DNA of 64,000 nucleotides from a bacterium. GTDB taxonomy: Bacteria; Vulcanimicrobiota; Vulcanimicrobiia; Vulcanimicrobiales; Vulcanimicrobiaceae. The first letter of the stretch is position 1, and each line of letters starts with the position of its first letter. Shown piece by piece: positions 46,874-63,974 of this stretch. Both the position numbers and the translations under genes were made by a program. The notes beneath the pieces were generated by a model. It saw only the letters and a list, made by a program, of their open reading frames with translations, was not told where the DNA came from and ran no database searches. The stretch covers positions 79,686 through 143,685 of the forward strand of contig JAJYCL010000002.1 of assembly GCA_021778415.1 (NCBI GenBank), given 5' to 3'.

Positions 46874-48442
46874 GTGAAATCAATCATCGCACGCGTCGGC
46901 TTGGCCCTCGCTGCGCTGGTTCTCGGCAGCACTGCAATTTCGTCGGCGGCAACACAGGACACACCGACGCATAAAGTAGTGGCTCAGGCCCCGGCCAAGA
47001 AGCACGCCAAGAGCCCGTTCAGCTATAAAGGCTTTATCCGCGCCTACAACTTTACCCGTCAAAACGCCAGTGGTGGCGTTGCGCAGGTCAACCAACAGTC
47101 ATTCAATATGGCCTTGGATCTGCATGGCGATTACAAATTCGTTGGCACCCCGTTCTCGATCGGTGCGACGTACTTCTACGCCAATCCGCTGGGCTCGTGC
47201 TCAAATGCACAAGATCATGCCTTCGGATCGGCATGCGTTTCGAACAAGGCACCGGGCTTGAATCCCGATGACACGTTGCCCGGCTATACGCTGAGCACGT
47301 TGATGGAAACGTACGTGAAGTACAATGCCGGACGTTTCAATGCAACGCTCGGCAATCAGCTCTGGGCGACGCCTTGGGCCAATCCTTCGGATTCGCGCGT
47401 CAAACCGGCCGCGTTCCAAGGCTTCGATGCCAACTATGCGTTCAACAAGACCTGGTCTGTTGAAGGTTCGTACATGACGCGCTTTGAGTCGCGTACGTCA
47501 TCGGCGTTCGATAACACGACGTTGATCACGGCCTGCGTTCCCGGTACCAACGGTATCGAGAGCACCGCTGTCGGCGCTGCCTGCGGCTTAAATTCGTATC
47601 CGCGTGTCACCAACAGCGGTTTCCTCTACGGGAAACTCGCCTACAACGGTCCGAAGGGCCTTTCGGCTGCACTTCATTACTACACGTTCAGCAATCTTGC
47701 GAACCTGACGTACTTTGAAGGCCGTTATAATCTCCCGTACGCCAACAAGTACAAGCCATATGTGATGGCACAGTATGCAACGGAAAAGAACACCGGTAAC
47801 AACATCGTCGGCAAGATCAACGCAACGGCGTTCGGTCTTAAGGGCGGACTTTCGTTGACGCCGAATGTGGACTTCTTTGTTGCCTACGATACCGTTCCAT
47901 CGAAGAGCGATACGTACACCAATGCGCAGATCGCTGCGACCGGTGTGACGTGTACCGCCGCTGGCGCATCAACGAACGGCTTCATCAAGGGTAACGGAAC
48001 GTTGCCATATTGGTTGCCGCAAGGCGGTAACCCGGATTGCACCGTTAACGCGGCAGCCGGCACGACGACCGTGTACTACGGTGGCTTTGCTTCGCCGTAC
48101 ACGTTCTCGTACGCAACCGATCCACTCTTCACCACGTCGATGACGCAGGGCTTCGCCGATCGCGGCATGTCCGGTTCGGCTGTGAAGTTCCAACTGAACT
48201 TCACCTCGTCGGATAAACGCTTCAACGGCATCCTCTCGCGCGCATATTACAACTACAACAACGGTGCCGGCGTCTCGCCGACCCAAGAAACCGATGCCGA
48301 TGCATGGTTCTACCTGCAAAAGCCGGGCAAGGGTCTGCTCGTTCGTTACCGTTACGGAGAGCGCACGCAGCAGTTCACCTCTGCGTTCGGTGGGCTCCCG
48401 CTCTTCAAGTACAACCGCGCTCAACTCGAATACGACTTCTAA
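46874..48442 (+). CDS. outer-membrane beta-barrel porin (candidate)
   Basis: Signal peptide MKSIIARVGLALAALVLGSTAISSAA, a Y/G/N-rich alternating pattern, and a C-terminus ..AQLEYDF ending in Phe. GTG start with AGGAG upstream. Confidence 0.7.
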   Translation: MKSIIARVGLALAALVLGSTAISSAATQDTPTHKVVAQAPAKKHAKSPFSYKGFIRAYNFTRQNASGGVAQVNQQSFNMALDLHGDYKFVGTPFSIGATYFYANPLGSCSNAQDHAFGSACVSNKAPGLNPDDTLPGYTLSTLMETYVKYNAGRFNATLGNQLWATPWANPSDSRVKPAAFQGFDANYAFNKTWSVEGSYMTRFESRTSSAFDNTTLITACVPGTNGIESTAVGAACGLNSYPRVTNSGFLYGKLAYNGPKGLSAALHYYTFSNLANLTYFEGRYNLPYANKYKPYVMAQYATEKNTGNNIVGKINATAFGLKGGLSLTPNVDFFVAYDTVPSKSDTYTNAQIAATGVTCTAAGASTNGFIKGNGTLPYWLPQGGNPDCTVNAAAGTTTVYYGGFASPYTFSYATDPLFTTSMTQGFADRGMSGSAVKFQLNFTSSDKRFNGILSRAYYNYNNGAGVSPTQETDADAWFYLQKPGKGLLVRYRYGERTQQFTSAFGGLPLFKYNRAQLEYDF

Positions 48443-48463
48443 AGCATCGCGTTCGCAGACGCA

Positions 48464-48503
48464 CGCAAGGGTCGGCAGAAATGCCGGCCCTTGTGCGTTT
48501 TTT
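48464..48503 (+). terminator. rho-independent terminator after the porin gene
   Basis: caagggtcggc-agaaat-gccggcccttg followed by tgcgTTTTTT. Confidence 0.8.
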
Positions 48504-48541
48504 CGAGGTGCGTTCGCCTTCCACGCGAATACTTGAGCCCG

Positions 48542-49600
48542 ATGAATGCGATGATGAAAGCGCTGGTTAAAACCGCGCCACAAGCGGGTTTTACGCTCAG
48601 CGACGTCCCTGTGCCCACCATCGGTCCGACCGACGTTCTCATCCGCGTCGAAAAAGCCGGCGTTTGCGGCACGGACGCGCATATTTACGGTTGGGATGTC
48701 TGGGCGCAAAACCGCGTGAAACCGCCACTGGTGATCGGCCACGAGTTCATGGGGACCGTCACGGCTATCGGCGCGGCAGTGCGATCAATCCATGTTGGTC
48801 AGCGCGTGAGTGCGGAAGGCCATATTGCCGATCTCACCTGCGTGCTTTGCCGTACGGGTGACGCGCATATTTGCGAGCGCGTCAAAATTATCGGCGTCGA
48901 TCGCGATGGGGCGTTCGCCGAATATATTGCGATGCCCGAATACAATGTGTGGCCGCTCGACGATGCCATTCCCGATGAGTTTGCCGCCATTTTCGATCCG
49001 CTTGGCAATGCCGTGCATACGGTGATGGCGGCCGGCGTCAGCACGAAATCGGTGGTTATTACCGGTGTCGGATCGATTGGCTTGATGGCGATTCCCGTCG
49101 CTCGCGCAGCGGGTGCGGCCTCGGTTTTTGCCATCGATGTGAATCCGGCGAAGCTTGAACTTGCCGCTCGTTTGGGCGCCGATGCCACCTACATGGCAAC
49201 GGATCCGAATCTCGTCGATGAGATTCTTCGCCGCACGAACGGTGACGGTGTCGATGTTTTACTGGAGATGTCGGGAAGCGGTGCGGCTATCGATGCAGGC
49301 CTACGCATGGTTCGCAATGGCGGGCGCGCCGCGCTTCTCGGAATTCCCAGTGATGACGTAAAAATCAATCTCGCGGAGCGCATTATTTTCAAGGGTCTCA
49401 CGGTGCTGGGAATCAACGGGCGCCGCATGTTTGAAACGTGGTATCAAACCCAGGCGTTGGTGAAATCCGGGCGCGTAGATCTGCGTCCGATTATTTCGCA
49501 CGTCTTGCCGTACACGGAATTCGATCGGGCATTCGCGCTGATGAAAAGCGGCGAAGCCGTAAAAATTGTTCTCGATTTTAAGGGAGATGGCGCACGGTGA
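48542..49600 (+). CDS. tdh: L-threonine 3-dehydrogenase
   Basis: MKALVKT..., CGTDAHIY, GHEFMGTV, and the structural Zn Cys cluster. The start may be the MKALV Met at 48554. Confidence 0.92.
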   Translation: MNAMMKALVKTAPQAGFTLSDVPVPTIGPTDVLIRVEKAGVCGTDAHIYGWDVWAQNRVKPPLVIGHEFMGTVTAIGAAVRSIHVGQRVSAEGHIADLTCVLCRTGDAHICERVKIIGVDRDGAFAEYIAMPEYNVWPLDDAIPDEFAAIFDPLGNAVHTVMAAGVSTKSVVITGVGSIGLMAIPVARAAGAASVFAIDVNPAKLELAARLGADATYMATDPNLVDEILRRTNGDGVDVLLEMSGSGAAIDAGLRMVRNGGRAALLGIPSDDVKINLAERIIFKGLTVLGINGRRMFETWYQTQALVKSGRVDLRPIISHVLPYTEFDRAFALMKSGEAVKIVLDFKGDGAR

Positions 49601-50790
49601 ATATCGCATTCGAATCGCGGCTCAACGGTGAGTTAGAAAAACTCAAAAGCGCGGGAACGTATAAACATCTTCGGCACATCACCTCGCCAATGGCTCCAAC
49701 AGTGCATATGGAAGAAGCCGGCGACGTGATCGTGCTCTCATCGAACAACTATCTGGGCCTCTCCGATGTTCCCGAGGTGATCGCTGCGGGCAAAGCCGGG
49801 CTCGATAAGTACGGAGCCGGGACGGCATCGGTACGGTTCATCTGCGGAACTTTTGATGTGCATCGTGCGCTCGAAGATCGCATCGCTTCGTTTCTTTCTG
49901 CAGAAGCTGCGCTAACGTACGTATCGTGCTGGAATGCGAATACCGGATTGTTTCCGGCAATTTGCGATGAGGGCTCGGCGATTATTTCCGACGAGCTCAA
50001 TCACGCATCGATCATCGATGGCGTTCGCTTGGCGTCGAAAGCTAAGCGTGCGGTGTACAAGCACGCCGATATGCACGATCTTGAAGAGAAGCTCAAGAGC
50101 GCGCAAGGGTGTGCGCCGATTCTGGTCGTGACCGACGGCGTCTTCTCCATGGAAGGGAGCGTTGCCAACCTTCCGGCCATCGTTGCACTCGCCAAGAAAT
50201 ACGGCGCAGTCACCGTTGTCGATGATTCGCATGGAACGGGTGTGATGGGTCGCACGGGGCGTGGAACCATCGAACATTTTGGGCTCGAAGGCGAGATCGA
50301 TATTATTACCGGAACCCTGGGCAAAGCGCTCGGTGGCGCCGCCGGCGGCTTCGTTGCCGGAAGCAGAGCGTTAATCGAAACGCTGATTCAAAAATCGCGC
50401 CCGCAGCTCTTCTCGAATGCCTTACCGGCGACCGTTGCGTGCAGTGCGCTGGCCGCAATCGAGTATTTGGATGCGCACCCCGAGTTGGTACAGCGTCAAC
50501 GTGAAAACGTGGCGTATTTTCGCGCCGGGTTAGCACGCATCGGACTCAAGCCGCTCGAAGGCGATAGCGCAATCGTCCCCATTATCGTCGGCGAGACGGC
50601 CTTCGCGATTGCGATGAGCGATAAGCTCTTACAACGCGGCGTTTTTGTCACCGGTTTCGGCTTCCCCGTGGTGCCTGAGGGTGCCGCACGAATTCGCGTG
50701 CAGATCAGCGCGGCCCATACCCACGAGCATCTGGATGCCGCACTCGCCGCGTTCGCTGCTGTTGGCAAAGACGTTGGGCTGTTGACGTAA
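49597..50790 (+). CDS. kbl: glycine C-acetyltransferase (2-amino-3-ketobutyrate CoA ligase)
   Basis: ELEKLKSAGTYK.., NNYLGL, DDSHGTG and TLGKALGG (PLP Lys). Overlaps tdh. Confidence 0.92.
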   Translation: MNIAFESRLNGELEKLKSAGTYKHLRHITSPMAPTVHMEEAGDVIVLSSNNYLGLSDVPEVIAAGKAGLDKYGAGTASVRFICGTFDVHRALEDRIASFLSAEAALTYVSCWNANTGLFPAICDEGSAIISDELNHASIIDGVRLASKAKRAVYKHADMHDLEEKLKSAQGCAPILVVTDGVFSMEGSVANLPAIVALAKKYGAVTVVDDSHGTGVMGRTGRGTIEHFGLEGEIDIITGTLGKALGGAAGGFVAGSRALIETLIQKSRPQLFSNALPATVACSALAAIEYLDAHPELVQRQRENVAYFRAGLARIGLKPLEGDSAIVPIIVGETAFAIAMSDKLLQRGVFVTGFGFPVVPEGAARIRVQISAAHTHEHLDAALAAFAAVGKDVGLLT

Positions 50791-51820
50791 TGTTTGCAGC
50801 GCTACTTCTCGCACTCTCGATTGCTCAGGCGTCTCCTCTCCCGAGTCCAAGCCCGACTCCGGTGGCAACGGCAATTCCGCTGAGTGCATATTTTACCGCG
50901 CCGAAGACGATGGACGTGACGCTTGCACCATCGATGCTCTCACCAAGGGCGCGCATGCTTTTTCTTTCCGAACGTAAAGGATCGATTGGCATCCTCGGGC
51001 CGCTCTCATCCTCTTTGAGAAAGAATCAACTCTTACGTCGATCGATGGGCTTGCCACAGCGCTTTCGGCATCGATCCACGCGAGACTGAACGGAGTCTCT
51101 CGATTTTCTGAAGCCCCGGTCCCCATTTGTGGCGGAACGCACACGGGAGTCGACGTTCACTATCAAGCGGTGTTTGCCGGACAATCCGTTGACATCCATC
51201 AAGTTTCCGGAATAGGCCCTGGGTCGGTGGATACGCTAACGTATAGTCGTCCAGTCAATGCTCTTGACGACCCCACTATTAACGCATCGTTGTCGACGCT
51301 TTGCCCACAGCCATTCATACCGGGTCGAGTGAGCTCGGAAATGGATCGGGCTAGCCTCGATGCGGTTGCCCCTTTGCCGAAAGGATGGGTCTCGCTCGCT
51401 GTGGATTCTTCCGCGAATGGGACTCCCGGTGCTCTTCCTTCGTTAGTGCTAAGTGCTCGTCTGGCGGCCACAAGCGATGCATCCGAGGAATACGATGTTT
51501 TTCGAGTATCCATTCCTGTTGGATCGCCTCCTGCGCAACGCTCTCTGAAAAACATTGCGATGTCCGCCGATCAAACGATGCTCGGTCTGTATAAGGGCTT
51601 TCGCAAAATTTCTAGTGCCGTGCGTCCCGGATTTTCGGGAACGGAGCTACAGCCGCAGTCGACATTTCGATTCGGACCACTCGTAATGATGACGCGCTAT
51701 AGCGAAAACGCAACGTCCGTCTATATTATCCGGTACAGTTTTTTAGCGTCGTTAGGCCCCAATCCCGGCGCTCTTAAGGCTATGGATATGCTTTGTGCAA
51801 CGCGGCATGAAAAGACGTAA
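50790..51820 (+). pseudogene. secreted protein gene split by a frameshift near 50.98-51.00 kb (pseudogene or assembly indel)
   Basis: Frame 0 has a signal peptide (MFAALLLALSIAQASP) but degenerates into Arg-rich text and stops at 51089. The next frame is open from 50978 to 51820, reads protein-like (AALILFEKESTLTSIDGLATAL..), and has no credible start or SD before the GTG at 51170. Confidence 0.5.
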
Positions 51821-51856
51821 TTATGGTGGCGATTGTGGGCAAAGCGACAAATGAAC

Positions 51857-51892
51857 AACGACCCTCATAAAATCGCTTTTACAAGGGTCGTT
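51857..51892 (+). terminator. 9-bp stem hairpin downstream of the split gene (large loop; weak)
   Basis: aacgaccct - 18 nt - agggtcgtt followed by a ..ggttttgg stretch. Confidence 0.3.
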
Positions 51893-52014
51893 CCTGGCGT
51901 TGGTTTTGGCTCATCGTAGGGACCCTAAACGCCGTCACCATCGACACTAAGCGGTATTAGTCGATAAAGGACCCATGGCAACAAGCCTCTTGTCAGTCGG
52001 ATTGCCATCGGGAT

Positions 52015-52137
52015 TTAGGCACCGAGCGAGCCGAAGAAGATTGATAGAAGCGATTTCTCGCGCTTTACGAATGCTTCCGCAGTTAGGGCGATGAGGAAAA
52101 GGGAGGCGATCGCCGTGATCGGATGAACGCTTTTCAA
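52015..52137 (-). CDS. 40-aa hydrophobic peptide translationally coupled to the upstream gene (candidate)
   Basis: TTG start at 52137, preceded by GGAGGTGA that spans the upstream stop codon. Peptide: MKSVHPITAIASLFLIALTAEAFVKREKSLLSIFFGSLGA. Confidence 0.35.
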   Translation of the reverse strand: MKSVHPITAIASLFLIALTAEAFVKREKSLLSIFFGSLGA

Positions 52138-52142
52138 ATAAC

Positions 52143-52628
52143 TCACCTCCCTTCGGCCGTTGCTAAATCGCGAAGCGTCGCAGCGACGGTTTCGGCTGCT
52201 TTTACCGGTGGGACTTGCCGATCGAACGACCACTGTTGCGACGGCCGACGTTCTGGCGTAGCAACTCGAGGTCCGACGTAAGGAATGAATGGATCACTTT
52301 CATCGTCGTTGCCGCCAGCGTGATTGAATAGTAATACGACGTAGAACGCACCGAAATTGCGCGGCGCGTAGGGGTTGTCGATCCGGTCGGACTGTCCCAT
52401 CTCCTCGCCGAGAATAAGCCAGAATGATTTCATCCAACCATCGCGAGTTATGGCCTTACGATTCAGATCGTGCCGCCTAACGAGTGATTTCAGCTCCTCC
52501 GTTGGTAATGCCAAGAGCCGGGTCAGCGCGAGGTCAGCCAATAGCGATGCGTTGCCGTTGGAAACAACTTTGGCGGTGCTCGCCAACTTTTCTGCTACTG
52601 CGTCGCTGAGGCTTAAGGCGCTCTTCAT
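52143..52628 (-). CDS. hypothetical protein with a ribbon-helix-helix-like N-terminus
   Basis: MKSALSLSDAVAEKLASTAK...ASLLADLALTRLLAL fits a strand-helix-helix pattern. The C-terminal ~110 aa are of unknown type. Confidence 0.55.
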   Translation of the reverse strand: MKSALSLSDAVAEKLASTAKVVSNGNASLLADLALTRLLALPTEELKSLVRRHDLNRKAITRDGWMKSFWLILGEEMGQSDRIDNPYAPRNFGAFYVVLLFNHAGGNDDESDPFIPYVGPRVATPERRPSQQWSFDRQVPPVKAAETVAATLRDLATAEGR

Positions 52629-52634
52629 GGTGTC

Positions 52635-52662
52635 ACCATATCAGTAATCTGAAGGGCGTCAA
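52635..52662 (-). promoter_or_regulatory. candidate sigma70-like promoter placing the TSS at or near the ATG (leaderless)
   Basis: On the minus strand: TTGACG - 16 nt - TATGGT - 6 nt - ATG (52628). Confidence 0.25.
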
Positions 52663-53092
52663 GGCAAAACTGGCGCGATTTTGAATTTTGCACGATTCTG
52701 AGATGGCGCAAGTTAAAAATGGTCACCTCGATGTTTGAATTATAGGGTACGGTGGCTCAGGCCAGAGCGTTCATTCGCCAGTCTCGTGTAATAGGCGGGA
52801 TGACCGGCCTCGGTTGTGACCGCTGCGGAACCATGAACACTTAGCTATGGGAACGCCGAGTAAAGAATCGCCGAGAGATGTTGCGCGTAGCCGCAGATGC
52901 CGACGGGAGGCGAATTGGATTTGCAGCAAATGCGGTACTGAGTCATTGCTCGAGAAGCGCAAGATAACCAGTGCAGTTTGCACCCCAATCCGCTGGATTG
53001 AAGCAGCCCCTTCATAGGATACGGCGCGATTCTGATGCTCATCGCAATACGCGGTCGACATGCGACGCGAGGCAGGCGGGTGCCCGAAATTT

Positions 53093-53124
53093 AAAAGGCC
53101 ACGCATGATGCGCGGCCTTCTTTT
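53093..53124 (-). terminator. rho-independent terminator closing the R-M-linked operon
   Basis: Minus-strand RNA: ggccgcgca-ucau-gcguggcc (one G:U, favoured on this strand) followed by UUUUAAAUUU. It lies 17 nt after the 82-aa gene stop. Confidence 0.7.
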
Positions 53125-53140
53125 GATGAGTTATCGTGAT

Positions 53141-53389
53141 TTACGCGACGGCCAATTTGCTGGCAAGTCTTGTTGTCGTCACCCGTAGTTCTTCGGCGAA
53201 CTGCCTGTAAGTAGCCGGCGCATTACTGTCGGCCCCGACCAAAACCTGAGCAACTTCGCGGGCGACAGGCTCGTTAATGGAGTCTGCGATCTTGCGGGCA
53301 TAAGTGCCCGAGCCGCGCGACATCATCTCAACGATCTGCTGCAGCTTCGTCATGTCCTCCGGGCGTATTCCGCGGAACTGCTTGCTCAT
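53141..53389 (-). CDS. 82-aa protein with a C-terminal HTH-like segment
   Basis: GGAGG lies 7 nt upstream of the ATG. ATYRQFAEELRVTTTRLASKL resembles an HTH recognition unit. Confidence 0.6.
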   Translation of the reverse strand: MSKQFRGIRPEDMTKLQQIVEMMSRGSGTYARKIADSINEPVAREVAQVLVGADSNAPATYRQFAEELRVTTTRLASKLAVA

Positions 53390-53443
53390 AAATGACCTCC
53401 TTCGGTTCTCTGGCTATAATTCCCACGTTCCCCTTGCCCCAGG

Positions 53444-55141
53444 CTAGGGCTTGATTTGGGTTAAATCCAGGAGTGAGAGGTAGCCCGTGGCCTGGTCGTC
53501 ATGCCTGCCGTCCGCTGTCCATTCTTTCGACATTTTGCTCCCTAGTTTAAGAACCACGCCCTCTGCCCCGGGTTCCAGGGGTATGGGCCTGCTTGCTCCC
53601 TGAAAGGCTTCACGCCAAAGGGCGATGCTACGATCTTCGTAGCCGCCAACTCTATTTGCCAAGTCGACCATCCCGGCTGCCGTCAGCGTCAAGACAGACG
53701 AACGGGGGTCTTCGGCCAAAACCGTGGCATAGCGGTCGGGCCAACGCGCTGGCACCTGGGCGGCGTCCAAAAGCAATGCGATTACTAGCGTAGGCCCGAC
53801 CGACCTTACCAATTCCGAAACGGGGTCCTGTCGTGCAAGATCCTCACAGATCAGAACGCAGAACGTCAGCCAGTCGTTCGCATTGAAGAAGATGCATGAG
53901 CGATTCTCAATTTGGATTCCTTCCCACCACGCGCCGTTGTCTTTCCTAGGGGGAAGCTTCGAAAGTGCGTAGCTGTTTGCTTGTTGCTCGTCAATACGCC
54001 AACGATGATGTTTGCTTTGCAGATAGGGCTCGTCTAATTCCGCATGAACAGAAATCGCGACATTGTTTGCTCCGAGCCGATCTGAGTTGGCGCCGCCAAC
54101 CCCAGAGACGATCAATGGCACTTTGAAGTTGTCCTGGATCCGCACTCGGAGCTTGGAGAACTGTTCTGGAGTCATGGCAAGTTCGGGCAGTACAACCCCA
54201 TGTATATCGCCGACTGCCTTTTGAGCGGCACGAAGCAAATTCTCAATTTTATCAATATCAGAGTCGCTAAATGGAATGTCGTAATCGAATAAGCCAACGC
54301 GGTCGGGAAGGCGTAGATTGTGACAATCGGCCGCGGGATGGAACGCTGCGGGATCAATGGTCATCGGCCATGGCACAAGCAGCAAGTTCATTTCTCGGTC
54401 TGGGATATCGAGCCGTATGTTTTCCCACGATCCGACCACTTCGGGTCTGTCCCACAGTGCGATGTTGTGCGTCAAGGAGCGTAGAGTCATACCCGTAAAC
54501 GGGTTGTGAGCCTTGGGCAAAACGGCGCATCGCGACGAATGAATGGACTCGCATAGAGTCTTGTCAATCGACAAATTTGCATTAGCGCGGCCTTCCTTTT
54601 CGCTCATAGCGCCGCTGCTCCTAAAACCAAAGCCAGCACAAGCAGCATCGCACGCGGCTACGATTCCGACAAGAGCGATAAACAGATCTCGCGTGTCGCA
54701 GATTTTGGCGACAGGAATACTCAAGTGGGTTAAGACCACTTTCCACCACGTTTTTACTTGAGCCGGCATCGTGGCGGAATTTGCGTCGCATGAGTTGCGC
54801 CACTCGTCCGCAATTTTCTCGATCGCTTGCTGCCACGCCGTCGTGTCGGTGTACTCGGCGGGCGGCCAAGTATTGGCCACTTCGCGATATGCGCCACTCC
54901 TCTTGAGAAGGCTTGCAGCAATAGCGAAGGCGTCGGGGGGCCACGCTATTTCTACGGAAGTTCGCACGGAAGGATTGAGATAATCGAGGATATCGCCAAC
55001 CGTTTCTACAGTACTTACTGACAATCGTGAGCCCTTTATGTTGTTGCTAGTGTTGCGGCTTAAGGGATCCGACTGAAGGATCGTTTTCATGGCCGCAAAT
55101 TTTGCACCGATCTTGATTCCATGGCGGATGCCCGAGGTCAT
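53444..55141 (-). CDS. 565-aa protein: unknown N-terminal ~250 aa plus a C-terminal nitrilase-superfamily (CN-hydrolase)-like domain
   Basis: Motifs in canonical order and spacing: first strand REMNLLLVPWP, Glu motif GDIHGVVLPELAMT (E320), Lys motif YLQSKHHRWRID (K377), Cys motif FCVLICEDLARQDP (C432). The start is uncertain (55141 or 55090). Confidence 0.7.
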   Translation of the reverse strand: MTSGIRHGIKIGAKFAAMKTILQSDPLSRNTSNNIKGSRLSVSTVETVGDILDYLNPSVRTSVEIAWPPDAFAIAASLLKRSGAYREVANTWPPAEYTDTTAWQQAIEKIADEWRNSCDANSATMPAQVKTWWKVVLTHLSIPVAKICDTRDLFIALVGIVAACDAACAGFGFRSSGAMSEKEGRANANLSIDKTLCESIHSSRCAVLPKAHNPFTGMTLRSLTHNIALWDRPEVVGSWENIRLDIPDREMNLLLVPWPMTIDPAAFHPAADCHNLRLPDRVGLFDYDIPFSDSDIDKIENLLRAAQKAVGDIHGVVLPELAMTPEQFSKLRVRIQDNFKVPLIVSGVGGANSDRLGANNVAISVHAELDEPYLQSKHHRWRIDEQQANSYALSKLPPRKDNGAWWEGIQIENRSCIFFNANDWLTFCVLICEDLARQDPVSELVRSVGPTLVIALLLDAAQVPARWPDRYATVLAEDPRSSVLTLTAAGMVDLANRVGGYEDRSIALWREAFQGASRPIPLEPGAEGVVLKLGSKMSKEWTADGRHDDQATGYLSLLDLTQIKP

Positions 55142-55566
55142 GAATCATTTCACGCTCAATATCCTCGAAGCCATCCGTAGGAAAGACGTAAACGTCGATC
55201 TCATCGCCGGCTGCGGCGTACTGATAGAATTTGGGCATTGACGTAGCACGTTGTGCGCGGGCCGCCCTTAAACGACTGCCGTGGGCCCGGTCTTGTCAAC
55301 GTACATGACGCGGTCGCCAATTTTGAGGAGGTACACTCCGTGGCCCTTGGGGACATCGCGAGGAACCGGGAATTCGCAGAAGGGGCCGCGACCATGGAGA
55401 TGCGGCTCTTGCTATCTGCGAGATGGGAGTCAAGCGTCGTGTGGAAACGCCAGTTGTCGTCGTCCGCTCTCAATGTATCTGGTGGCAGCGTGTACGTCGC
55501 CTTTTCGTGCCCGCCACGGATTGTGCGTTTTCCACTCGGTCGCTTCATCGTAGGCGTTGGCTTCAT
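55047..55566 (-). pseudogene. GIY-YIG-like nuclease gene broken by two frameshifts
   Basis: ATG 55566 forms an ATGA overlap with the DUF45 stop. Frame 1 reads MKPTPTMKRPSGKRT..ISMVAAPS. The next frame reads EFPVPRDVPKGHGVYLLKIGDRVMYVDKTGPTAVV*. The third reads ..SRLRAARAQRATSMPKFYQYAAAGDEIDVYVFPTDGFEDIEREMIHDLGHPPWNQ.. Confidence 0.45.
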
Positions 55567-56276
55567 GATTGCCACTCTTGATGGCTTACTGGAAGTTCGT
55601 TCAATAGGTCCCGCCGCAAACGCCAGTTGGGCATAAGGCGGTCCATGGCGCCCGTGAAACGGGCGTTATGCGTCGGCTCCAGTAGATGAACCATCTCATG
55701 AAGGAGCACATATTCAAGGCACTCTTTTGGCTTCTTCGCGATATCCGTGTTGAGTCGGATTGATCCTGACTTGTGGCTGCAGGAACCCCACTTCGTTTTC
55801 ATGCGCTGAACCGTAATCTTGTCGACCCCGACTCCGACCACGGGGGCCCAACGTGCGATTAACGCAGGCACTGCTGCTTTCACTTGCTCCCGATACCAGC
55901 CGGCCAATAGTGCGTCTTTTCGCTCGACCGTTGCTTCGACGGGAACGTGTAGGATGAGGTTCCTATGATTGATCGTTACTGAAGCCCTTTTAGATTCGGC
56001 GACACGCAACAAGTAGCGTTTGCCCCAAACGAAGTGGCTTTCGTTTGCAAGAAATTCGCGAACCATCTCCCGATGCTGTGTGCGTAATTTGAGTTGCTGC
56101 CGTCGAATCCAACCGAGTTTAGTGATGGCGAATACACGAATGGTTTCGATATCCGTTTGATGCGGTGCCGAAACGGTCACGCGGCCCGAGGGCGGGTGAA
56201 CACTCAGATGTACGTTTTTAATATCCTTAAAGTGTACGGCAACCAATAAGTCACCGACGTTCAAATGTGCCAGCAT
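55563..56276 (-). CDS. DUF45/YgjP-like (M48-type) metallopeptidase, R-M associated
   Basis: HEMVHLLEPTHNARF (HExxH) and KWGSCS. The start overlaps the hsdR stop (TGATG). Confidence 0.85.
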   Translation of the reverse strand: MLAHLNVGDLLVAVHFKDIKNVHLSVHPPSGRVTVSAPHQTDIETIRVFAITKLGWIRRQQLKLRTQHREMVREFLANESHFVWGKRYLLRVAESKRASVTINHRNLILHVPVEATVERKDALLAGWYREQVKAAVPALIARWAPVVGVGVDKITVQRMKTKWGSCSHKSGSIRLNTDIAKKPKECLEYVLLHEMVHLLEPTHNARFTGAMDRLMPNWRLRRDLLNELPVSHQEWQS

Positions 56277-59200
56277 CAGTACTCGTCCTGGGCCTTCACG
56301 ATTGCAAATACGCGTTCAACTTCATCGTCATCCTGGAGAACCTCGTAGATAATCTCTTTGACCTTGCGTTCTTTGGCTAGCATGCCGCGCCAAGCGTCCG
56401 GCCGACGCTCACGGATGATCTCATCTAGCCGTAGCGCCAAATCTTCATTTCGTGCCAAGCTATTCCATAGTGCGCGCTTGCCCGGCGTATCAAGTCGTTC
56501 GGGCGAATCATCCATGCGGCCGGCAATGGCTTGTTTAGCGAGTTCACTAATTTGTTTGAGGTACTCTCGATACTTGATCGCATTGGATTTACGAGCCTCG
56601 ATGACTTCTTTTAGCAACGAGGAGATAGTCTCGTAGTAGATCGGGTCGGAAAACCGCTGTTTAACGATCGTCTTACGGATGTTGTTTTCGATGACCTCGG
56701 CGACGATCTCCGCATTCATTGTTCTGCCTCTAAAATGCTGCTCGACGGCCTTCGTAACGCCGATACGCCCGATAAGGTCCAAAAGGGACATAGCTAGCGA
56801 CGTATCTAGCGACGAGAAGACACTCCGCGGTGCATCTGCTTCAATGTAGACATCTATCAAGTGTCTCATATCAGCCTCGAAGGGCTTAAGGTCCAACGTT
56901 TCGCCACTTGCCTGGCGAACAAGGTCGCGAATGTTGACGTAATATTCGCGTAGTTGCTTAAGCTCCAAGACATCATCGGGGGTGTATCCTGCGCCTGCCA
57001 TCTCATCAGCGATATCTGCAGTTGCGCGCACAAAATCCACGGTTGCCCTGTATAAGGCTACGCGCCGAGGTTGCGTCTCAACAAGGTCCGATTCAATTTC
57101 GGAGTTTCCGCAGAAGTATTGAATAAATTGCAATTCGCCGCGAGGAGATGCCACCGGTTCGCAGAGGCCGAAGAGCGTCTCTCTTGCGTCTTCGATCCGT
57201 TGTCGCCCGCGAACAAGTCGGTCCTGAATAAGAATTTCCGGTTCCGACCCTGGCGCTTCATCGTCTAATTCGGACGCGTAGACCGCCATCGCGCCTTCGA
57301 CCTTCTTGAAAAGGTCCTTGTAGTCAACGACGGTGCCGAATTTCTTGGTTTCATCGTCGAGCCGGTTCGTGCGGCAAATCGCCTGGAAGAGGCCGTGGTC
57401 CTGCATGGATTTGTCGATGTAGAGAACGCTGCACGGTGGCGCATCAAAGCCTGTTAGTAATTTGTCCACAACGATCAGCAGACGCATGCTGGCTGGTTCT
57501 TTGATAAACTTTGCCTTGACATCGTCCTCATAGGTTTCGGTCGCAGTCTTGCCGGGTTTCGGTATTATATTCGCCAATAGATCGGTATATATGCGGTAAA
57601 TAAATTGCTTCTCGGTTTCGGTATTAGCGCCAGTCTCCTCAAGCGTAATATCGCGAACCTGAGGATTGTAAGACGTGACAATGGCGCACTCGCCTTTGAG
57701 GCGCGTGGACTGGAACAGTTCGAAATACCGGCATGCCTCGTAGATGCTTGATGCAACAAGGATTGCATTCCCGAGTCTACTGGCTAAACGAGCGTTTTTC
57801 ATAAAATCGAAAATGATGTCATTAACAACGCGCGATATGCGTGATCGCGAACTGAGCACTATCTGCATGGTGCTCCAATGTTTCATGAGTTCGTTTTTTT
57901 GCCACTGGTTAAGCTCGCGAGTCGTGCATGCAAACCATTCGTCGATCGTTTCGGGCGAGCCAAGCGATTGGTCTATATCACGCGCGTCATAGACCAAATC
58001 AAGGACGACACCGTCTTCAACAGCTTCTTTAAACTGGTACCTATGGATGTAGCCGCCGAACAAGGCAAGCGTCGACTGCCGATCTTGCTTGAGAAGCGGA
58101 GTGCCGGTAAACCCAATGAACACGGCATTCGGCATGATCGCACGCATGGCACGGTGTAACTTGCCGCTTTGCGTGCGGTGCGCCTCATCAACGAAGATGA
58201 AGACGTCGCCAACAGTTTGGCTAGGCTTATCGCCGAGGTCTTTGATAAAAGCCTCAAAATTGTCGATGTTTCTCGGGCCGAATTTATGAATGAGGGAGCA
58301 TAGCAAGCGCGGCGTTGCTTGACCGAGTTGTTGCAACAAATCGCGACCACTCGCCGTTCGCTTTATCGGCTCTCCAACAGCGTTGAAAACGCCCTCGATC
58401 TGCTTATCAAGTTCATCTCTGTCGGTAATGATGGCCACTCGCGCATTTGGAAGGTTCTCGAGAATCCATTTAGCGAGAAAAACCATAACGATGCTTTTGC
58501 CGCTGCCCTGCGTGTGCCAGATGATGCCACTTTGTTTGCGCGCGACGTATTCTTGAGCGGCCTTAATCGCAAAGTACTGATGCGGCCGTGGTAGCTTTTT
58601 CCAACCGTTATCAAAGAGTACGAAATTCTGCATTAACTCAACGATGCGTGCTTTACTGCAGATCTTGCGCAAGTACTTGTCGATCTTGAATCCCGTGTTG
58701 TCGGATTCGTCTTCTTTCCAGTCGACAAAGAACTTCTCGGGGGTAAGTATTGTCCCGTACTTGAGACCTTCCGAATCGTTTCCGGCAAACACGAACTGGA
58801 TGGTGCTGAAGAACCACGGGTGAAACTCAGGCTGCTGGTTCGAAAGATTCTGCCGAATGCCGTCACCGATGCTGATTCGGCTGTTTTTTAGCTCGATTAC
58901 GCCAATCGCAATACCGTTGATGAAAAGGACAAGGTCCGGCCGACGATCATGGTCGCCACTAAGCGTGACCTCTTGGGCAATCCCAAAATCGTTCTTCTCG
59001 GGCTCGTTCCAATTGATGAGATGGACTGTTTTCGTCATCTCGCCTACCGCGGTTTTTACGGGAATGCCGTAGCGCAGCAACTTGTAGACTTCCTGATTGT
59101 TTTCGTACAACGAGCGCTGCGGATTACGCGCTTCAGTTTTGAGGGCGTAGATCGCCTTGGAGATTTGTTCCGGGGAGTAGCCGCTGCGGACAAGCCAATC

Positions 59201-59341
59201 GGAAAGAAGCGATTCTTCAACGTTCGAGTTGTTTTCGCGCTCAGTCCAATCCCCAAGATACGTGTAACCGAGGTCGTCCCTAAAGAGCGCGATGATGCGT
59301 TCTTGCGTGACCTTCTCTGCCTTGCCGACCTCATCGATCAT
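56276..59341 (-). CDS. hsdR: type I restriction endonuclease subunit R
   Basis: N-terminal nuclease region (PDLVLFINGIAIGVIELK), helicase motifs WHTQGSGKS, FVDEAHRTQSG, FTGTP and QAICRTNR. Start set at MIDEVG (ATGA overlap with hsdS). Confidence 0.93.
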   Translation of the reverse strand: MIDEVGKAEKVTQERIIALFRDDLGYTYLGDWTERENNSNVEESLLSDWLVRSGYSPEQISKAIYALKTEARNPQRSLYENNQEVYKLLRYGIPVKTAVGEMTKTVHLINWNEPEKNDFGIAQEVTLSGDHDRRPDLVLFINGIAIGVIELKNSRISIGDGIRQNLSNQQPEFHPWFFSTIQFVFAGNDSEGLKYGTILTPEKFFVDWKEDESDNTGFKIDKYLRKICSKARIVELMQNFVLFDNGWKKLPRPHQYFAIKAAQEYVARKQSGIIWHTQGSGKSIVMVFLAKWILENLPNARVAIITDRDELDKQIEGVFNAVGEPIKRTASGRDLLQQLGQATPRLLCSLIHKFGPRNIDNFEAFIKDLGDKPSQTVGDVFIFVDEAHRTQSGKLHRAMRAIMPNAVFIGFTGTPLLKQDRQSTLALFGGYIHRYQFKEAVEDGVVLDLVYDARDIDQSLGSPETIDEWFACTTRELNQWQKNELMKHWSTMQIVLSSRSRISRVVNDIIFDFMKNARLASRLGNAILVASSIYEACRYFELFQSTRLKGECAIVTSYNPQVRDITLEETGANTETEKQFIYRIYTDLLANIIPKPGKTATETYEDDVKAKFIKEPASMRLLIVVDKLLTGFDAPPCSVLYIDKSMQDHGLFQAICRTNRLDDETKKFGTVVDYKDLFKKVEGAMAVYASELDDEAPGSEPEILIQDRLVRGRQRIEDARETLFGLCEPVASPRGELQFIQYFCGNSEIESDLVETQPRRVALYRATVDFVRATADIADEMAGAGYTPDDVLELKQLREYYVNIRDLVRQASGETLDLKPFEADMRHLIDVYIEADAPRSVFSSLDTSLAMSLLDLIGRIGVTKAVEQHFRGRTMNAEIVAEVIENNIRKTIVKQRFSDPIYYETISSLLKEVIEARKSNAIKYREYLKQISELAKQAIAGRMDDSPERLDTPGKRALWNSLARNEDLALRLDEIIRERRPDAWRGMLAKERKVKEIIYEVLQDDDEVERVFAIVKAQDEY

Positions 59342-60621
59342 ACGAGTCGCACTTTCCCTGTAAGTAGTTGCTGCATCATGCCTTGTTTGATATTGCAAGC
59401 TTTTGCCAAGTGATCGTTGATTGCGGCTACTTCATCATCCATGTCAGAAAGGGCACTAGAAATCGCCGACTGTTCCTGGAGATCAGACGGGACAATGAGC
59501 TTCATCGCGCTTAAAACGGAACCATTCAGAGCCGGAAGCGCGGTGGTGCTCACTAAATCACCAAACCGTGTGTTCCTAAAGAGAAAGTGAACAAAGCGGT
59601 GGTCCGCGCTACCGTCGAATAATGTAAAGCCAGCCATGTTGTTATCTAGGCATGACGTTTGCGAAAGAATACGCTTTCTTTCAAGAAAAACTGCGGCGCC
59701 GACTTTGGCGAGAACGATTGTACCGGGAGCGAATGTTGGAGCGCCAAGGAGTTTGCGCTGAGTCTCAGAAATGTAATTGTTCGAGGTGCGCATGAAGGTC
59801 TCGTTCCCGTCGTTGTTCATATCCGAGACTTTAAAGAACGGGTAGGCGCCAGATGTTGCGCCCTGGTATGATAGCGGGAATCCTGTGCCGCCTCTGAAGT
59901 TGCCCAATTGCTTCGCCTCGACGACAATCCAATCTCGCGGAATCGACCCGACCTCGGTGCTTTTCCAGCCAGGCATTTTCTCGAATCCCGGCAGCCGCCG
60001 GGTGCCAGTGAGCAACTCCTGCATTGCGCCCTGCATGATGGCGCGCTTCTTCGCAAGCAATTTTTCCATCGATTCGATGTACGCGTCGGCATTGCTCAGG
60101 ACTTCGGCGATCGCTTCTTGTTCGCAGAGCGCCGGCACAGGGATTAAAAAGGACTTTACGATTTCACCACTGAGATTCGGCTGCCCGCCTTGCAGATACG
60201 TGTCCAGGTAGGCTTGCTTCTGAAAACGTAGATACTGGAATAAGAATTCAGTATTCAATATCTTCGAAGGCTTGATCGCTAGAATTGCTTGATTGATAGC
60301 TGCGGGAATTTGAGTTCTTGCCGCGACCCCGGCAGTTGCTCCGTATAGAGCGATAAGCAAATCTCCAGCCTCAACCATTTTAGCTGAAGAATTTGCGAGG
60401 CCGAGCTTAGTAATACGACCTTCGACGTCGCGGATACGGACCGCATTAAGATCTCCCGAGGTGATCCAAGGTATTGCCCCACCGTAGTATTCTCGAACAG
60501 ACGTGTTCGGAGTACCCCCAGAGAAGCACTCCGCGAGTTCACTAATGCGTTGCGCAGTCCAACCAAATGCTATCACTCCAAGTTCCGTCTGATTGCGTTC
60601 CGGCGCCGTTGCTACTTCCAT
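59338..60621 (-). CDS. hsdS: type I restriction-modification specificity subunit S
   Basis: Two target-recognition halves separated by conserved helices (..EQEAIAEVLSNADAYIESMEKLLAKKRAIMQGAMQELLTG.. and ..EQSAISSALSDMDDEVAAINDHLAKACNIKQGMMQQLLTGKVRL). Confidence 0.9.
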   Translation of the reverse strand: MEVATAPERNQTELGVIAFGWTAQRISELAECFSGGTPNTSVREYYGGAIPWITSGDLNAVRIRDVEGRITKLGLANSSAKMVEAGDLLIALYGATAGVAARTQIPAAINQAILAIKPSKILNTEFLFQYLRFQKQAYLDTYLQGGQPNLSGEIVKSFLIPVPALCEQEAIAEVLSNADAYIESMEKLLAKKRAIMQGAMQELLTGTRRLPGFEKMPGWKSTEVGSIPRDWIVVEAKQLGNFRGGTGFPLSYQGATSGAYPFFKVSDMNNDGNETFMRTSNNYISETQRKLLGAPTFAPGTIVLAKVGAAVFLERKRILSQTSCLDNNMAGFTLFDGSADHRFVHFLFRNTRFGDLVSTTALPALNGSVLSAMKLIVPSDLQEQSAISSALSDMDDEVAAINDHLAKACNIKQGMMQQLLTGKVRLV

Positions 60622-63008
60622 GTAAATCCCATCCGCTGCAGATGACCATTCACCATTGTTTCCAGAGTCGTGACAGATTGAGTCAGGAGCGGAAGTGCAG
60701 TGGCATAGCGAGATGAGAGTTCTTCGGTCCGTTTTGCGAGCTGTTGCCCTAAACGATTCATCTCACTGTGAATTGCGGAGTCAATTGCGCCGAGCCACTT
60801 ATCCTCGACTACGAGGGTCTTAATTTCGCGCTCGCTTAGTTTCGGATATTTCTCGAATGCTGCAAGGTCGAGAGCTGCTTCTACTGCTTTGAGGCTCTTC
60901 TTGAGCGCTGCTTCCTCGTCGCTAAGTTTAAGCCAGGCCTTCAGAACGGCGACCTCATTGCGCGCACCTTTGTCTTTGGCAATTTCCTTGAGGCGGGCCG
61001 CTACGTTCGGGCGCTTGATCGCATCGAGATCCAACGCGCCTCCTTCGACTTCGTGTTCCTCTTCGATTTCGGCTAGTCGTGACGTTGCCGATTCAAGCGC
61101 GCTCGTCAGGTCTTCAATCTCGCTGCGCTCTTTTGCGAAATAGCGGGCAACGATAATGTCCTTCGGAATCAGCTCGCATACCCAGCCCTTATCCTTGCTC
61201 TGGCCTTTTTTGTTCCTTTCGATAACGCGCTGCGTCTCGGCTTTCCAGCCGTCAATCGAAATGAGGTAGCAGTCGTCTTGCATCGTGTCGGCCCAATAGT
61301 CCATGAGATGCTGGTAGACGGCGTACGGATCGATTAGGGGATTGCCAGTGTAATGCGCGAGCAACTCCTCGGAAATCTTTTTTATGAGGTCCTTCGGATG
61401 AAATCCGGGCTTGAGGTCTTTGAGTGATTTAACGGTCTGACTGCGCCAGGTGGCAAAATGCGCGTTCATGTCGGCGACGAACGCCAGAAACTGCGGATGC
61501 GCATGGATGGTGCTTTTAATCGCTGATTGTTCGACAGCGAGGTCGACGTAGCCGGGCCGGTTAGGTTTGAAGAGCGCGTCGCGCAGGTTCGGGCAGACCT
61601 TCCAATAGCGCTCGAGTGCGTCAATATCGGCCTCGGGAATCCCGCCCTGCAGATGCGCGGCAATGTCTTGGATGTCTTCCGTTACCAGGCTATCAATGTA
61701 GCGCGGAATGTTGAGGTTAAAGCCGTTCTTCTCAATTTCGGCGAACGGCACCATGCGAGAGTATTTCGACACCTCGAGCTGGCGCGTAAAAACGTCAACG
61801 ATTTTGTGAATGTCTTGCGCGCGTAGGCGGTTTTTCGGGCCATCCTTCATGAAGCCAGTGCTGGCATCAATCATAAAGATGCCAGTGCGGTCCTTCGCGT
61901 GCTTCTTGTCGATAACGACGATGCATGCGGGGATACTCGTGCCATAGAACAGGTTTGGCGGTAAGCCGATGATGCCAGCGATGTAGCCCCTGCGAATAAG
62001 GTTCTCGCGAATCGTCGCCTCACCGCCGCCGCGAAAAAGCACGCCGTGCGGCAAAATGCAGGTGCCCGTGCCGGTACTTTTGAGCGACGCAACGATGTGG
62101 AGCAGATACGCGAAATCACCCTGCTTGTCAGGTGGAACTCCGAAGCCTTCGAATCGCTTGAATTCGTCGTTTTCGGGATCGATGCCATTGCTCCATCGTT
62201 TGTCCGAAAATGGCGGATTGGCGATGACGTAGTTGAACTGTTTGAGTTTGCCCTTATCCGTGAATTTGGGATTCGCGAGGGTGTTGCCCTGAACGATTTC
62301 GGCCGTCGGGCGCTGGTGCAGAATCATGTTCATGCGGGCCAGGCCGCTCGTCGTCGCGTCTTTCTCCTGGCCATAAAGCGTGACATCGGGGCCTGCCTCC
62401 TCCGCAACCTTTAGCAGCAGCGAGCCGGAGCCGCAGGTCGGGTCGTAAATTGTCGTTTGTGCGCTGACCTTTGATTTCACGATGCCGAGGAGGCGGGCGT
62501 CGACTTGGCTGACCTCGGAAGGCGTGTAGAACTGCCCCTTACTCTTGCCGCTTTCGGTCGCAAAGTGGCGCATCAGATATTCATACGCATCGCCCAAAAG
62601 ATCGTCGCCGTCGGCGCGGTTGTTCGAGAAGTCCAGGGCTGGGTTCTGGAAGATCGCGATGAGGTTGGTGAGGCGATCGACCTTGTCTTTGCCGCTGCCG
62701 AGTTTCAGATCGTCGTTGAAATCTGGCATATCCGCCAGACCATTGGCCGCGGCTAAGGGTGTGATAATCCTTTTATTGATCTGATCGCCGATGTCGGCCT
62801 TACCCTTGAGGGCGACCATGTCGCTGAATGATGAACCGGGCGGCACGGTGATGGCCGCATATTTCTTGCCGGCGTATTTATCGCTGACGTACTTGACGAA
62901 TAGCAGCACGAGCACGTAGTCCTTATACTGACTCGCGTCCATGCCTCCGCGGAGTTCGTCACAACTGGCCCAGAGGCTTGAGTAGAGGTCCGATTTCTTG
63001 ATTGCCAC
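60612..63008 (-). CDS. hsdM: type I R-M N6-adenine DNA methyltransferase subunit M with a long C-terminal extension
   Basis: HsdM N-terminus (LWASCDELRG..YKDYVLVLLFVKY), SAM motif DPTCGSGSLL, catalytic NPPF (YVIANPPFS). About 300 extra C-terminal residues, partly coiled-coil-like. Confidence 0.93.
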   Translation of the reverse strand: MAIKKSDLYSSLWASCDELRGGMDASQYKDYVLVLLFVKYVSDKYAGKKYAAITVPPGSSFSDMVALKGKADIGDQINKRIITPLAAANGLADMPDFNDDLKLGSGKDKVDRLTNLIAIFQNPALDFSNNRADGDDLLGDAYEYLMRHFATESGKSKGQFYTPSEVSQVDARLLGIVKSKVSAQTTIYDPTCGSGSLLLKVAEEAGPDVTLYGQEKDATTSGLARMNMILHQRPTAEIVQGNTLANPKFTDKGKLKQFNYVIANPPFSDKRWSNGIDPENDEFKRFEGFGVPPDKQGDFAYLLHIVASLKSTGTGTCILPHGVLFRGGGEATIRENLIRRGYIAGIIGLPPNLFYGTSIPACIVVIDKKHAKDRTGIFMIDASTGFMKDGPKNRLRAQDIHKIVDVFTRQLEVSKYSRMVPFAEIEKNGFNLNIPRYIDSLVTEDIQDIAAHLQGGIPEADIDALERYWKVCPNLRDALFKPNRPGYVDLAVEQSAIKSTIHAHPQFLAFVADMNAHFATWRSQTVKSLKDLKPGFHPKDLIKKISEELLAHYTGNPLIDPYAVYQHLMDYWADTMQDDCYLISIDGWKAETQRVIERNKKGQSKDKGWVCELIPKDIIVARYFAKERSEIEDLTSALESATSRLAEIEEEHEVEGGALDLDAIKRPNVAARLKEIAKDKGARNEVAVLKAWLKLSDEEAALKKSLKAVEAALDLAAFEKYPKLSEREIKTLVVEDKWLGAIDSAIHSEMNRLGQQLAKRTEELSSRYATALPLLTQSVTTLETMVNGHLQRMGFTWK

Positions 63009-63197
63009 GGTGCGATACGTAACCTTCCTGGATATAAATACGACGCAGGGTTAGAGACCCACCCTAGGAAGATACACCAAATTCGGCATTCGAACAATCG
63101 AGCAAATCAGCGCAAAAAATGCAGATTAGCAATAAAGCATCGCTGTGTTTGCTATGCAGTGAAGCGCAAGCTTGCATAGGTGCAAATTCGACGCATA

Positions 63198-63220
63198 TTT
63201 GCGCGACGCAAACGTTTGCG
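63198..63220. promoter_or_regulatory. overlapping palindromes (TTTGCG/CGCAAA half-sites) upstream of hsdM: candidate operator
   Basis: tttgcg-cga-cgcaaa (63198-63212) overlaps the perfect 12-bp palindrome gcaaacgtttgc (63208-63219), in the AT-rich spacer between the HEPN-like gene and hsdM. Confidence 0.25.
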
Positions 63221-63279
63221 ATATCAGAATATAGCGGAGCGCCACAGTCAAAACGTTAGCACAATAAGCGTAAGACTTC

Positions 63280-63759: not shown

Positions 63760-63974
63760 TCGGCCTCGCTGTTCATTTGCGCTCGCGACGTAGACAGATA
63801 AATGTTACTTGAAGGCGAAGCGTTCGCCTGGGTCCTTGGCGGTGGGAGCCCCGTGACACACCCGGCCAAACGATGACCTGCTCAAAACGGCGGCGAATGT
63901 AGCTCGTTGATGATCCTCGAACGACGGATAAAAAAGAAAAAGGCCCAACAACGTTTCCGCTATCGAACCTATAT

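Follow-up and report, generated by a model that had tools for sequence, protein, structure and literature searches.

The 64,000-nucleotide stretch of contig JAJYCL010000002.1 analysed here, referred to as the window, carries on its minus strand between positions 53141 and 55024 a pair of genes which forms an autonomous, horizontally mobile two-gene cassette present across many phyla and on plasmids. The first gene encodes a large cytoplasmic protein, in which a predicted all-helical N-terminal domain leads into a very divergent domain of the nitrilase-superfamily fold, and the second encodes a small partner protein. The cassette is read here as a toxin-antitoxin (TA)-like conflict or defence module with a cysteine-hydrolase effector, and this reading is given a probability of roughly 0.45. 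In an original prediction made from this DNA the pair had been proposed as an undescribed defence module appended to a type I restriction-modification (R-M) operon.

The C-terminal two-thirds of the large protein is, as judged from structure prediction and profile alignment, a very divergent cysteine hydrolase or acyltransferase domain of the nitrilase (carbon-nitrogen hydrolase, CN-hydrolase) superfamily with all four catalytic-type residues kept. By Foldseek and hhalign the domain covers 53447..54529 (-), corresponding to residues ~205-565 of the open reading frame (ORF) as first called, and the residue numbers of that ORF are used throughout. In an alignment of 40 sequences reaching down to 38% identity, the residues assigned by hhalign to catalysis are invariant together with many other positions: the catalytic Glu320 of the PELA motif (codon 54182..54184 (-)), the catalytic Lys377 of the KHHRW motif (54011..54013 (-)), Glu407 of WWE as the candidate second Glu of the tetrad (53921..53923 (-)), and Cys432 of ICEDLAR as the nucleophile (53846..53848 (-)). 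The motifs from which the domain had originally been recognised, VVLPELAMT (E320), SKHHRW (K377) and VLICEDL (C432), are all present, and the distances of 57 residues from Glu to Lys and 55 from Lys to Cys are as first reported.

The CN-hydrolase fold claimed for this part was borne out when the structural comparison proposed along with it was run on an AlphaFold2 model. The single-chain model of the large protein (predicted local distance difference test score, pLDDT, 88.6; predicted template modelling score, pTM, 0.88) gave 88 matches at E<=0.001 to the PDB in Foldseek, and the 50 listed were all nitrilase-superfamily enzymes, with a best E of 4e-8, a probability of 1.00 and a target TM-score of up to 0.62. 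The matches listed include beta-alanine synthase, the glutaminase domain of NadE, the formamidase AmiF, Nit2/Nit3, CJ1056C, N-carbamoylputrescine amidase and vanin, and the model together with these matches displays the four-layer alpha-beta-beta-alpha sandwich. Enzymes of the nitrilase superfamily need homo-oligomerisation across conserved interfaces for their activity.

The correspondence of the catalytic residues was followed with hhalign in three comparisons, with E. coli YafV alone, with Lnt alone and with both of these plus 40 N-carbamoylputrescine amidases. The register was consistent in all three, placing E320/K377/E407/C432 on the catalytic Glu/Lys/second Glu/Cys, with weak scores: the alignment with the amidase set spans 250 columns at P = 0.04, and the single YafV or Lnt comparisons gave negligible probability. 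E320 is aligned to the Glu of LPEM in YafV, of WPES in Lnt and of LPELF in the amidases; K377 to the Lys of 'DKRH' in YafV and of 'YRKMH' in the amidases; E407 to the Glu of the amidase 'F.EK' motif; and C432 to the Cys of the amidase 'LICWD', in a motif which also resembles 'VCYDLRF' of YafV. In sequence searches the large protein has no match to PF00795 at E<=1 in Pfam, which places it below the gathering threshold of that family, and PF00795 was touched by only 2 of the 40 relatives, the best with an E of 0.0061, far weaker than curated matches elsewhere. No usable match was obtained by Pfam, NCBIfam, PADLOC, phmmer against PDB sequences or the family profile against PDB sequences. Given the missing PF00795 match, membership of the superfamily is assigned at the level of the fold, as a new and very divergent branch.

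The N-terminal domain, delimited from the alignment and a domain model to 54542..55021 (-) (ORF residues ~41-200), had been described as matching nothing recognisable, and so it proved: no Pfam model matches it, and the domain modelled alone (pLDDT 87.6, pTM 0.88) gave no significant match to a PDB structure in Foldseek, the best having an E of 1.4. Invariant in the 40-sequence alignment are W67, P68, D70 and F72 (WPPDAF), Y85, W103, W114, D165 and G172, and a conserved LPKxHxPxxGxTxRSxxH segment leads from this domain into the nitrilase fold. A profile of the domain, run against 1.84 billion representatives, found 1,797 clusters at 50% identity. All of the 150 best carry the domain N-terminally, for the most part in proteins of ~520-570 residues and otherwise in shorter entries, and from this placement the two domains look like an obligate unit. 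The family is an unannotated one, its N-terminal domain occurring in ~1,800 clusters from many soil phyla and plasmids which are called hypothetical in all databases searched.

The ORF list gives the large ORF as 53444..55141 (-), 565 residues from an ATG at 55141. Its coordinates, the 54-nt gap to the small gene, the GGAGG and the terminator are all as originally described according to the ORF list, sequence reading and RNA folding; the length of 565 residues is a probable over-extension. Codons 1 to ~39/40 are unconserved, are modelled as disordered (pLDDT <50) and overlap the remnant of a GIY-YIG nuclease-like gene, and homologues of ~527 residues begin at the position of residue 40, as P0002 does with 'MSVSAEETVGD'. 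For these reasons the start is placed at the TTG at 55024, and the large protein is probably of 526 residues, with a coding sequence of 53444..55024 (-) including the stop. The 54-nt spacer contains the GGAGG ribosome-binding site (53396..53400 (-)), read from the sequence 6 nt before the ATG of the small partner gene (53141..53389 (-), 82 residues), which is supported by the ORF list and by a match to the partner hidden Markov model (HMM). The unit is closed by an intrinsic terminator (53085..53121 (-)) made up of a 13-bp GC-rich hairpin at 53093-53121 and a U-rich tail. A simple terminator scan made no call at 53093-53121; the hairpin was recovered by RNA folding with a free energy (dG) of -21.3 kcal/mol and a z of -5.8, none of 200 shuffles being equally stable, and is followed by UUUUAAAUUU.

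The large gene has in the small downstream gene a genuine, conserved partner. Across loci a gene of 65-110 residues usually lies directly 3' of the large gene, overlapping it or a few to ~100 nt away, with start offsets often of -4 to +20 nt. An HMM built from the downstream ORFs of other loci matches the 82-residue protein of the window with an E of 1.4e-15, and a match to the partner HMM lies immediately downstream in 113 of the 135 distinct loci with enough downstream sequence. Among the other 22, several loci carry small ORFs with the same helix pattern whose divergence keeps them from scoring. A helical structure is predicted for the partner, which is alanine-rich, with a hydrophobic 'LSPxDASxLxxLA ... 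AReIA ... WA' pattern, and evolves far faster than the enzyme, its identity being down to 10-20% in cases where that of the enzyme stays at 35-40%. In the partner alignment one position, Leu16, is nearly invariant, and no terminal residue, Asn, Gln, Cys or Lys is conserved. A C-terminal -VA tail was considered as a conserved modification site and discarded, the tail being restricted to the closest (Eremiobacterota) clade. The mini-protein had first been described as helix-turn-helix (HTH)-like, and of that description the conserved partnership stands and the HTH does not. Scanned with Pfam at E<=1, the 59 partner sequences showed no recurring HTH family: two touch HTH_63 (best E 0.016) and one HTH_IclR (E 0.026), and of the 34 families matched, the 25 listed are mostly unrelated. 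The 82-residue partner may still hold a cryptic HTH.

Relatives of the large protein were found in 331 of 185,579 species genomes (0.18%), in a sparse and patchy distribution. The best 80 of the 331 come mostly from Acidobacteriota and also from Eremiobacterota, Myxococcota, Planctomycetota, Chthoniobacterales (Verrucomicrobiota-type), Armatimonadota-type, Bdellovibrionota, Gammaproteobacteria and others. The annotations of close relatives name Candidatus Cybelea or Aquilonibacter, or the relatives are found in a Candidatus Eremiobacteraeota metagenome-assembled genome (MAG), which makes Eremiobacterota the probable source of the window. A metagenome scan with the single protein as query found nothing, and the same kind of scan with the alignment found at least 567 relatives among the 600 pattern matches listed. 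Twelve plasmids carry a relative, and on a mobilizable Massilia plasmid the pair lies between Tn21-type mer genes and IS3 elements. Copies of the cassette that are 83% identical sit in different arrangements. Cultured carriers, which may serve further work, include Terriglobus roseus DSM 18391, Dyella japonica DSM 16301 and several plasmid-bearing Rhizobiaceae.

Two of the more distant plasmid-borne relatives have settings of their own. Plasmid NZ_CP072139.1 of Agrobacterium sp. S7/73 (locus L182, 5580-9650) encodes a ~30% identical relative of 598 residues, with a 753-residue protein without Pfam domain 13 nt upstream and a DGQHR/radical-SAM/ATPase/PIN cluster adjoining. On pDAETH-2 of Deinococcus aetherius (L183, 7488-12960) a ~30% relative occurs as an 808-residue fusion, followed by a 995-residue TPR protein and a VapBC pair.

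In the window the cassette follows a type I R-M operon, and such an association recurs. Type I R-M genes were found in the flanks of 5 of 149 distinct loci, compared with ~0.5-1 expected by chance, a rough estimate which assumes 1-2 type I systems per 5-Mb genome. In the window, L019 (Bryobacter) and L106 the next gene upstream is hsdR, in the same direction as the cassette; in L095-97 the R-M operon is divergent to the cassette, and in L042 (Dyella japonica) it is 6.7 kb off. The HsdR of the window shares 22% identity with that of L095 and 29% with that of L019, while the cassette proteins of the window and L095 are 83% identical. As the HsdRs are mutually unrelated at this level of cassette identity, the associations look like separate juxtapositions and not like one inherited block. 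It is tentatively suggested, with somewhat less than even odds, that the cassette came to lie beside type I R-M in the window through one among several separate landings in defence islands and is not functionally dependent on R-M.

Other defence genes were met beside close relatives. The 83% relative has on one side a type I R-M system and on the other a CD-NTase and Cap15 pair of the cyclic-oligonucleotide-based anti-phage signalling system (CBASS); a 68% relative adjoins BilA/B/D genes, a UvrD-PD-(D/E)XK protein and an integrase; a 70% relative adjoins an HD/dGTPase-like gene, a kinase and a cpYpsA SLOG gene; and another copy is near an OLD-family ATPase, a patatin and RHS/Imm33 genes. Beyond these cases broad defence-island enrichment was not seen, and apart from the partner no neighbouring gene is conserved across loci. 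The neighbourhood analysis proposed with the original prediction confirmed co-occurrence with the family of the 82-residue gene and found R-M at the 5 loci, and most neighbourhoods turned out to be housekeeping. A defence or conflict role nevertheless remains plausible, given the several unrelated type I R-M juxtapositions and the CBASS and Bil neighbours, and the label of undescribed holds in that no PADLOC model matches. The attachment to a type I R-M operon does not hold as a defining feature: the cassette is autonomous, and most of its copies lie among housekeeping genes without R-M.

Some of these islands contain further genes. Beside the 83% relative (L095 11945-14962, L096 11102-14119) two co-directional genes of 171 and 265/305 residues stand between the cassette and the CBASS pair; neither has a Pfam match, and they could be part of the CBASS operon or additional cargo of the island. 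A third conserved downstream gene was looked for and rejected, the 161-residue ORF of the window and the 171-residue gene of L095 being unrelated. RHS/DUF6531 polymorphic-toxin genes occur a few kb from the cassette in two unrelated loci, L001 (12411-14216 (-)) and L007 (615-6284 (-)), one of which has an Imm33-like immunity gene.

As a conflict module the pair would work in the manner of a TA or abortive-infection system. The large protein would be a latent effector attacking a C-N bond of the amide or amidine type in an essential small molecule or protein, presumably by way of a thioacyl intermediate on Cys432. The N-terminal domain would gate the active site or target it, and the small partner would be the cognate protein that inhibits or regulates the effector; if it were lost or displaced, for example in phage infection, the activity would be freed. 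A narrower form of this proposal, regarded as rather unlikely, is an anti-phage system independent of reverse transcriptase (RT), in which a stand-alone nitrilase-fold effector with an N-terminal sensor, restrained by its partner, would destroy an essential metabolite with an amide or amine group (NAD+, a nucleotide or a cofactor) or deamidate a key protein, and which would move between defence islands and settle repeatedly beside type I R-M.

Several results weigh against a conflict or defence module. No relative was found by tblastn in 50,697 phage records or by fold search among the viral structures of BFVD. The Pfam scan of the 59 partners gave no DNA-binding signature for the 82-residue protein, and the putative toxin is, unlike in classical type II TA systems, a protein of ~526 residues encoded first. 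The genomic surroundings were surveyed with PADLOC and Pfam for 241 proteins within 5 kb in 35 genomes, the top 25 families being listed. The leading PADLOC matches were Ser/Thr kinases, a few AAA ATPases and subtilases; Pfam returned mainly housekeeping or metabolic genes and a few transposases; and no R-M family was among the top PADLOC or Pfam families listed. Four of the 10 long-contig contexts looked up were purely housekeeping. Eight of the 241 neighbours are eukaryote-like Ser/Thr kinases which score strongly on the PADLOC 'PD-T4-6' models; they probably reflect the kinase-rich genomes of Acidobacteriota and Myxococcota and not defence.

These surroundings would be expected if the large protein were an uncharacterised metabolic or detoxifying amidase or carbamoylase with the N-terminal domain as a substrate lid, the partner as an accessory or chaperone and the adjacency to defence genes incidental, an explanation considered doubtful. 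The housekeeping or metabolic character of most neighbourhoods speaks for such an enzyme, and the enzymes listed as Foldseek matches are metabolic ones (beta-alanine synthase, formamidase, Nit2, the NadE glutaminase domain and N-carbamoylputrescine amidase). Copies are also present in several Pyrinomonadaceae MAGs, and in the neighbour survey which includes these MAGs succinate-dehydrogenase and LigT families recur, which may be shared synteny. Across loci, however, no metabolic gene is conserved beside the pair, and the occurrence in 0.18% of species genomes from many phyla and on plasmids, the very fast evolution of the partner, the separate recurrence of type I R-M adjacency and the exchange of genomic context between close relatives all fit poorly with a metabolic role.

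The nitrilase superfamily includes branches directed at protein N-termini, the amidase Nta1 and the N-acyltransferase Lnt (Pace & Brenner 2001, as cited in PMC13275509). A protein-directed enzyme of this sort, with the partner as a substrate or carrier that is deamidated, acylated or otherwise processed, would account for the strict pairing of enzyme and small protein and for the conserved C-terminal -(A)VA of the partner in the closest clade. It is improbable in view of the partner family as a whole, in which Leu16 alone is nearly invariant, no terminal residue, Asn, Gln, Cys or Lys is conserved, and the -VA tail is absent beyond the Eremiobacterota clade. Least probable, and indeed highly so, is a dedicated accessory of type I R-M, either a PrrC-like back-up fired when phage anti-restriction blocks Hsd or a modifier of R-M activity. 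The co-directional hsdR directly upstream in the window, L019 and L106, the R-M systems adjoining in L095 and near in L042, and the short upstream gap in the window, which leaves little room for a promoter and suggests co-transcription, are what such an accessory would show. It is disfavoured because in ~97% of the distinct loci the available flanks contain no type I R-M; moreover the adjoining R-M systems are of unrelated families and lie in either orientation, and elsewhere the cassette is preceded by an intergenic region of its own, 100-460 nt long, or faces a divergent neighbour.

The TA-like conflict or defence module is tentatively preferred for the cassette, and the genes around it in the window are described here as context. 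The minus-strand order is hsdM, hsdS, hsdR, YgjP/DUF45, the GIY-YIG-like remnant, the large ORF, the 82-residue ORF and the terminator, and the same gene order is found on the public MAG contigs GCA_027355875.1 and GCA_027422005.1. The type I R-M operon with the YgjP/DUF45 gene occupies 55563..63008 (-), outside the cassette, as judged from ORFs, Pfam and an identical contig. On that contig hsdM (60612-63008 (-)) carries HsdM_N/N6_Mtase, hsdS (59338-60621 (-)) Methylase_S and hsdR (56276-59398 (-)) HSDR_N/ResIII; the YgjP/DUF45 metallopeptidase gene (55563-56276 (-)) matches PF01863 with an E of 5e-59. The R-M segment has a GC content of 0.51-0.53 compared with roughly 0.55-0.64 across most of the window, which fits horizontal acquisition. 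The order hsdM-hsdS-hsdR-DUF45-(GIY-YIG) given originally is correct, with the reservation that the last member is only a frameshifted remnant. Three-frame translation places this GIY-YIG nuclease-like remnant, also outside the cassette, at 55047..55411 (-) between the YgjP gene and the cassette, its 3' end overlapping the over-extended start of the 565-residue ORF. One frame gives GVYLLKIGDRVMYVDKTG and another EIDVYVFPTDGFEDIEREMIHDLGHPPWN, in pieces at 55268-55411 and 55047-55295, and the 124-residue ORF found there has no Pfam match. The broken gene may be a pseudogene or an assembly error.

HsdM of the window is unusually long at 798 residues, that beside the 83% relative (L095) having 666, and beyond HsdM_N/N6_Mtase it bears a C-terminal extension of several hundred residues, seemingly charged and helical. 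The gene of the YgjP/DUF45 (also SprT-like) zinc metallopeptidase meets the end of hsdR at 56276, a position which both ORFs touch, and is absent from the other R-M-linked loci L019, L095 and L106. ORFs of 159 residues (63280-63759 (-)) and 161 residues (52143-52628 (-)) bracket the R-M and cassette block; neither has a family match, and on the identical public contigs (L098) there are gene calls for both. No convincing gene is present at 50790-53100, a stretch of ~2.3 kb downstream of the cassette. As for marks of an island boundary, no tRNA was found across the whole window and no Rfam element in 48000-64000.

Among known systems, the large protein was compared with the members of the nitrilase (CN-hydrolase) superfamily PF00795, namely the Nit2/YafV omega-amidases, AmiF, beta-ureidopropionase, N-carbamoylputrescine amidase, NadE and Lnt. 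It shares with canonical nitrilases the fold (Foldseek probability 1.00) and the ordered Glu, Lys, (Glu) and Cys, its PELA corresponding to LPEL/WPES and its ICEDLAR to VCYDLRF/LICWD. It differs from them in a sequence below the family thresholds, in the obligatory ~160-residue N-terminal domain without solved relative, in an insertion of ~20-30 residues between the Lys and the second Glu, and in the paired small partner gene.

Defence genes within or appended to type I R-M loci are known from the PrrC anticodon nuclease in EcoprrI and the Rlo genes of Campylobacter. The cassette resembles second-line effectors of the PrrC type in lying directly after hsdR in the same orientation at three unrelated loci; it has no sequence or fold similarity to PrrC/RloC, and most members of its family have no link to R-M. 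In type II TA systems a toxic protein is neutralised by direct binding of a co-encoded labile antitoxin. The cassette has in common with these systems the tight linkage or overlap of its two genes, the rapid evolution of the small partner, a distribution both patchy and mobile, occurrence on plasmids and, for some copies, a place in islands with other TA and defence genes. Apart from the size and the leading position of the putative toxin, it departs from them in a partner without recognisable DNA-binding or known antitoxin domain.

The closest precedent for how the cassette might work comes from defence-associated reverse transcriptases (DRTs). No named anti-phage system built on a nitrilase-fold effector had been thought to exist when the pair was first described, a claim which is overturned by the RT-nitrilases DRT1 and UG5 (PMC9122126, PMC13275509, PMC13436386). 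DRT1 (UG1) and the UG5 RT-nitrilase, which belong to class 3 among the UG/Abi RTs, have been validated as anti-phage systems (Gao 2020, as cited in PMC9122126; PMC13436386). The nitrilase domain of DRT1 has a catalytic tetrad and is the proposed effector according to a 2026 cryo-EM study (PMC13275509). Defence by DRT1 and UG5 requires the nitrilase domain, which is the proposed effector, and the suspected substrate is an essential metabolite bearing an amine or amide (PMC13275509, PMC9122126, PMC13436386). DRT1 is regulated by covalently attached DNA and by the formation of filaments.

The large protein shares with DRT1 and UG5 a nitrilase-fold domain with a catalytic tetrad. It contains no RT (RVT) family in Pfam, and no RT was found in the annotated neighbourhoods or among the top-25 neighbour families listed. 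None of the 5,027 models of PADLOC-DB 2.0.0 is matched by the large or the small protein at E<=1, the DRT models being only assumed to be included in that set. The family is best placed as a new, very divergent branch of the nitrilase superfamily and not as a member of the DRTs, from which it differs in the lack of an RT, in another N-terminal domain, in a protein partner and in the absence of a PADLOC match. Were the conflict or defence reading true, the cassette would be the first nitrilase-fold effector system without RT, and, with its two proteins, a simpler means of approaching a question which the work on DRT1 and UG5 left open, namely what a nitrilase effector hydrolyses to stop phage. 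In place of the DNA attachment and filaments of DRT1, the candidate regulators of the effector here are its own N-terminal domain and the small partner.

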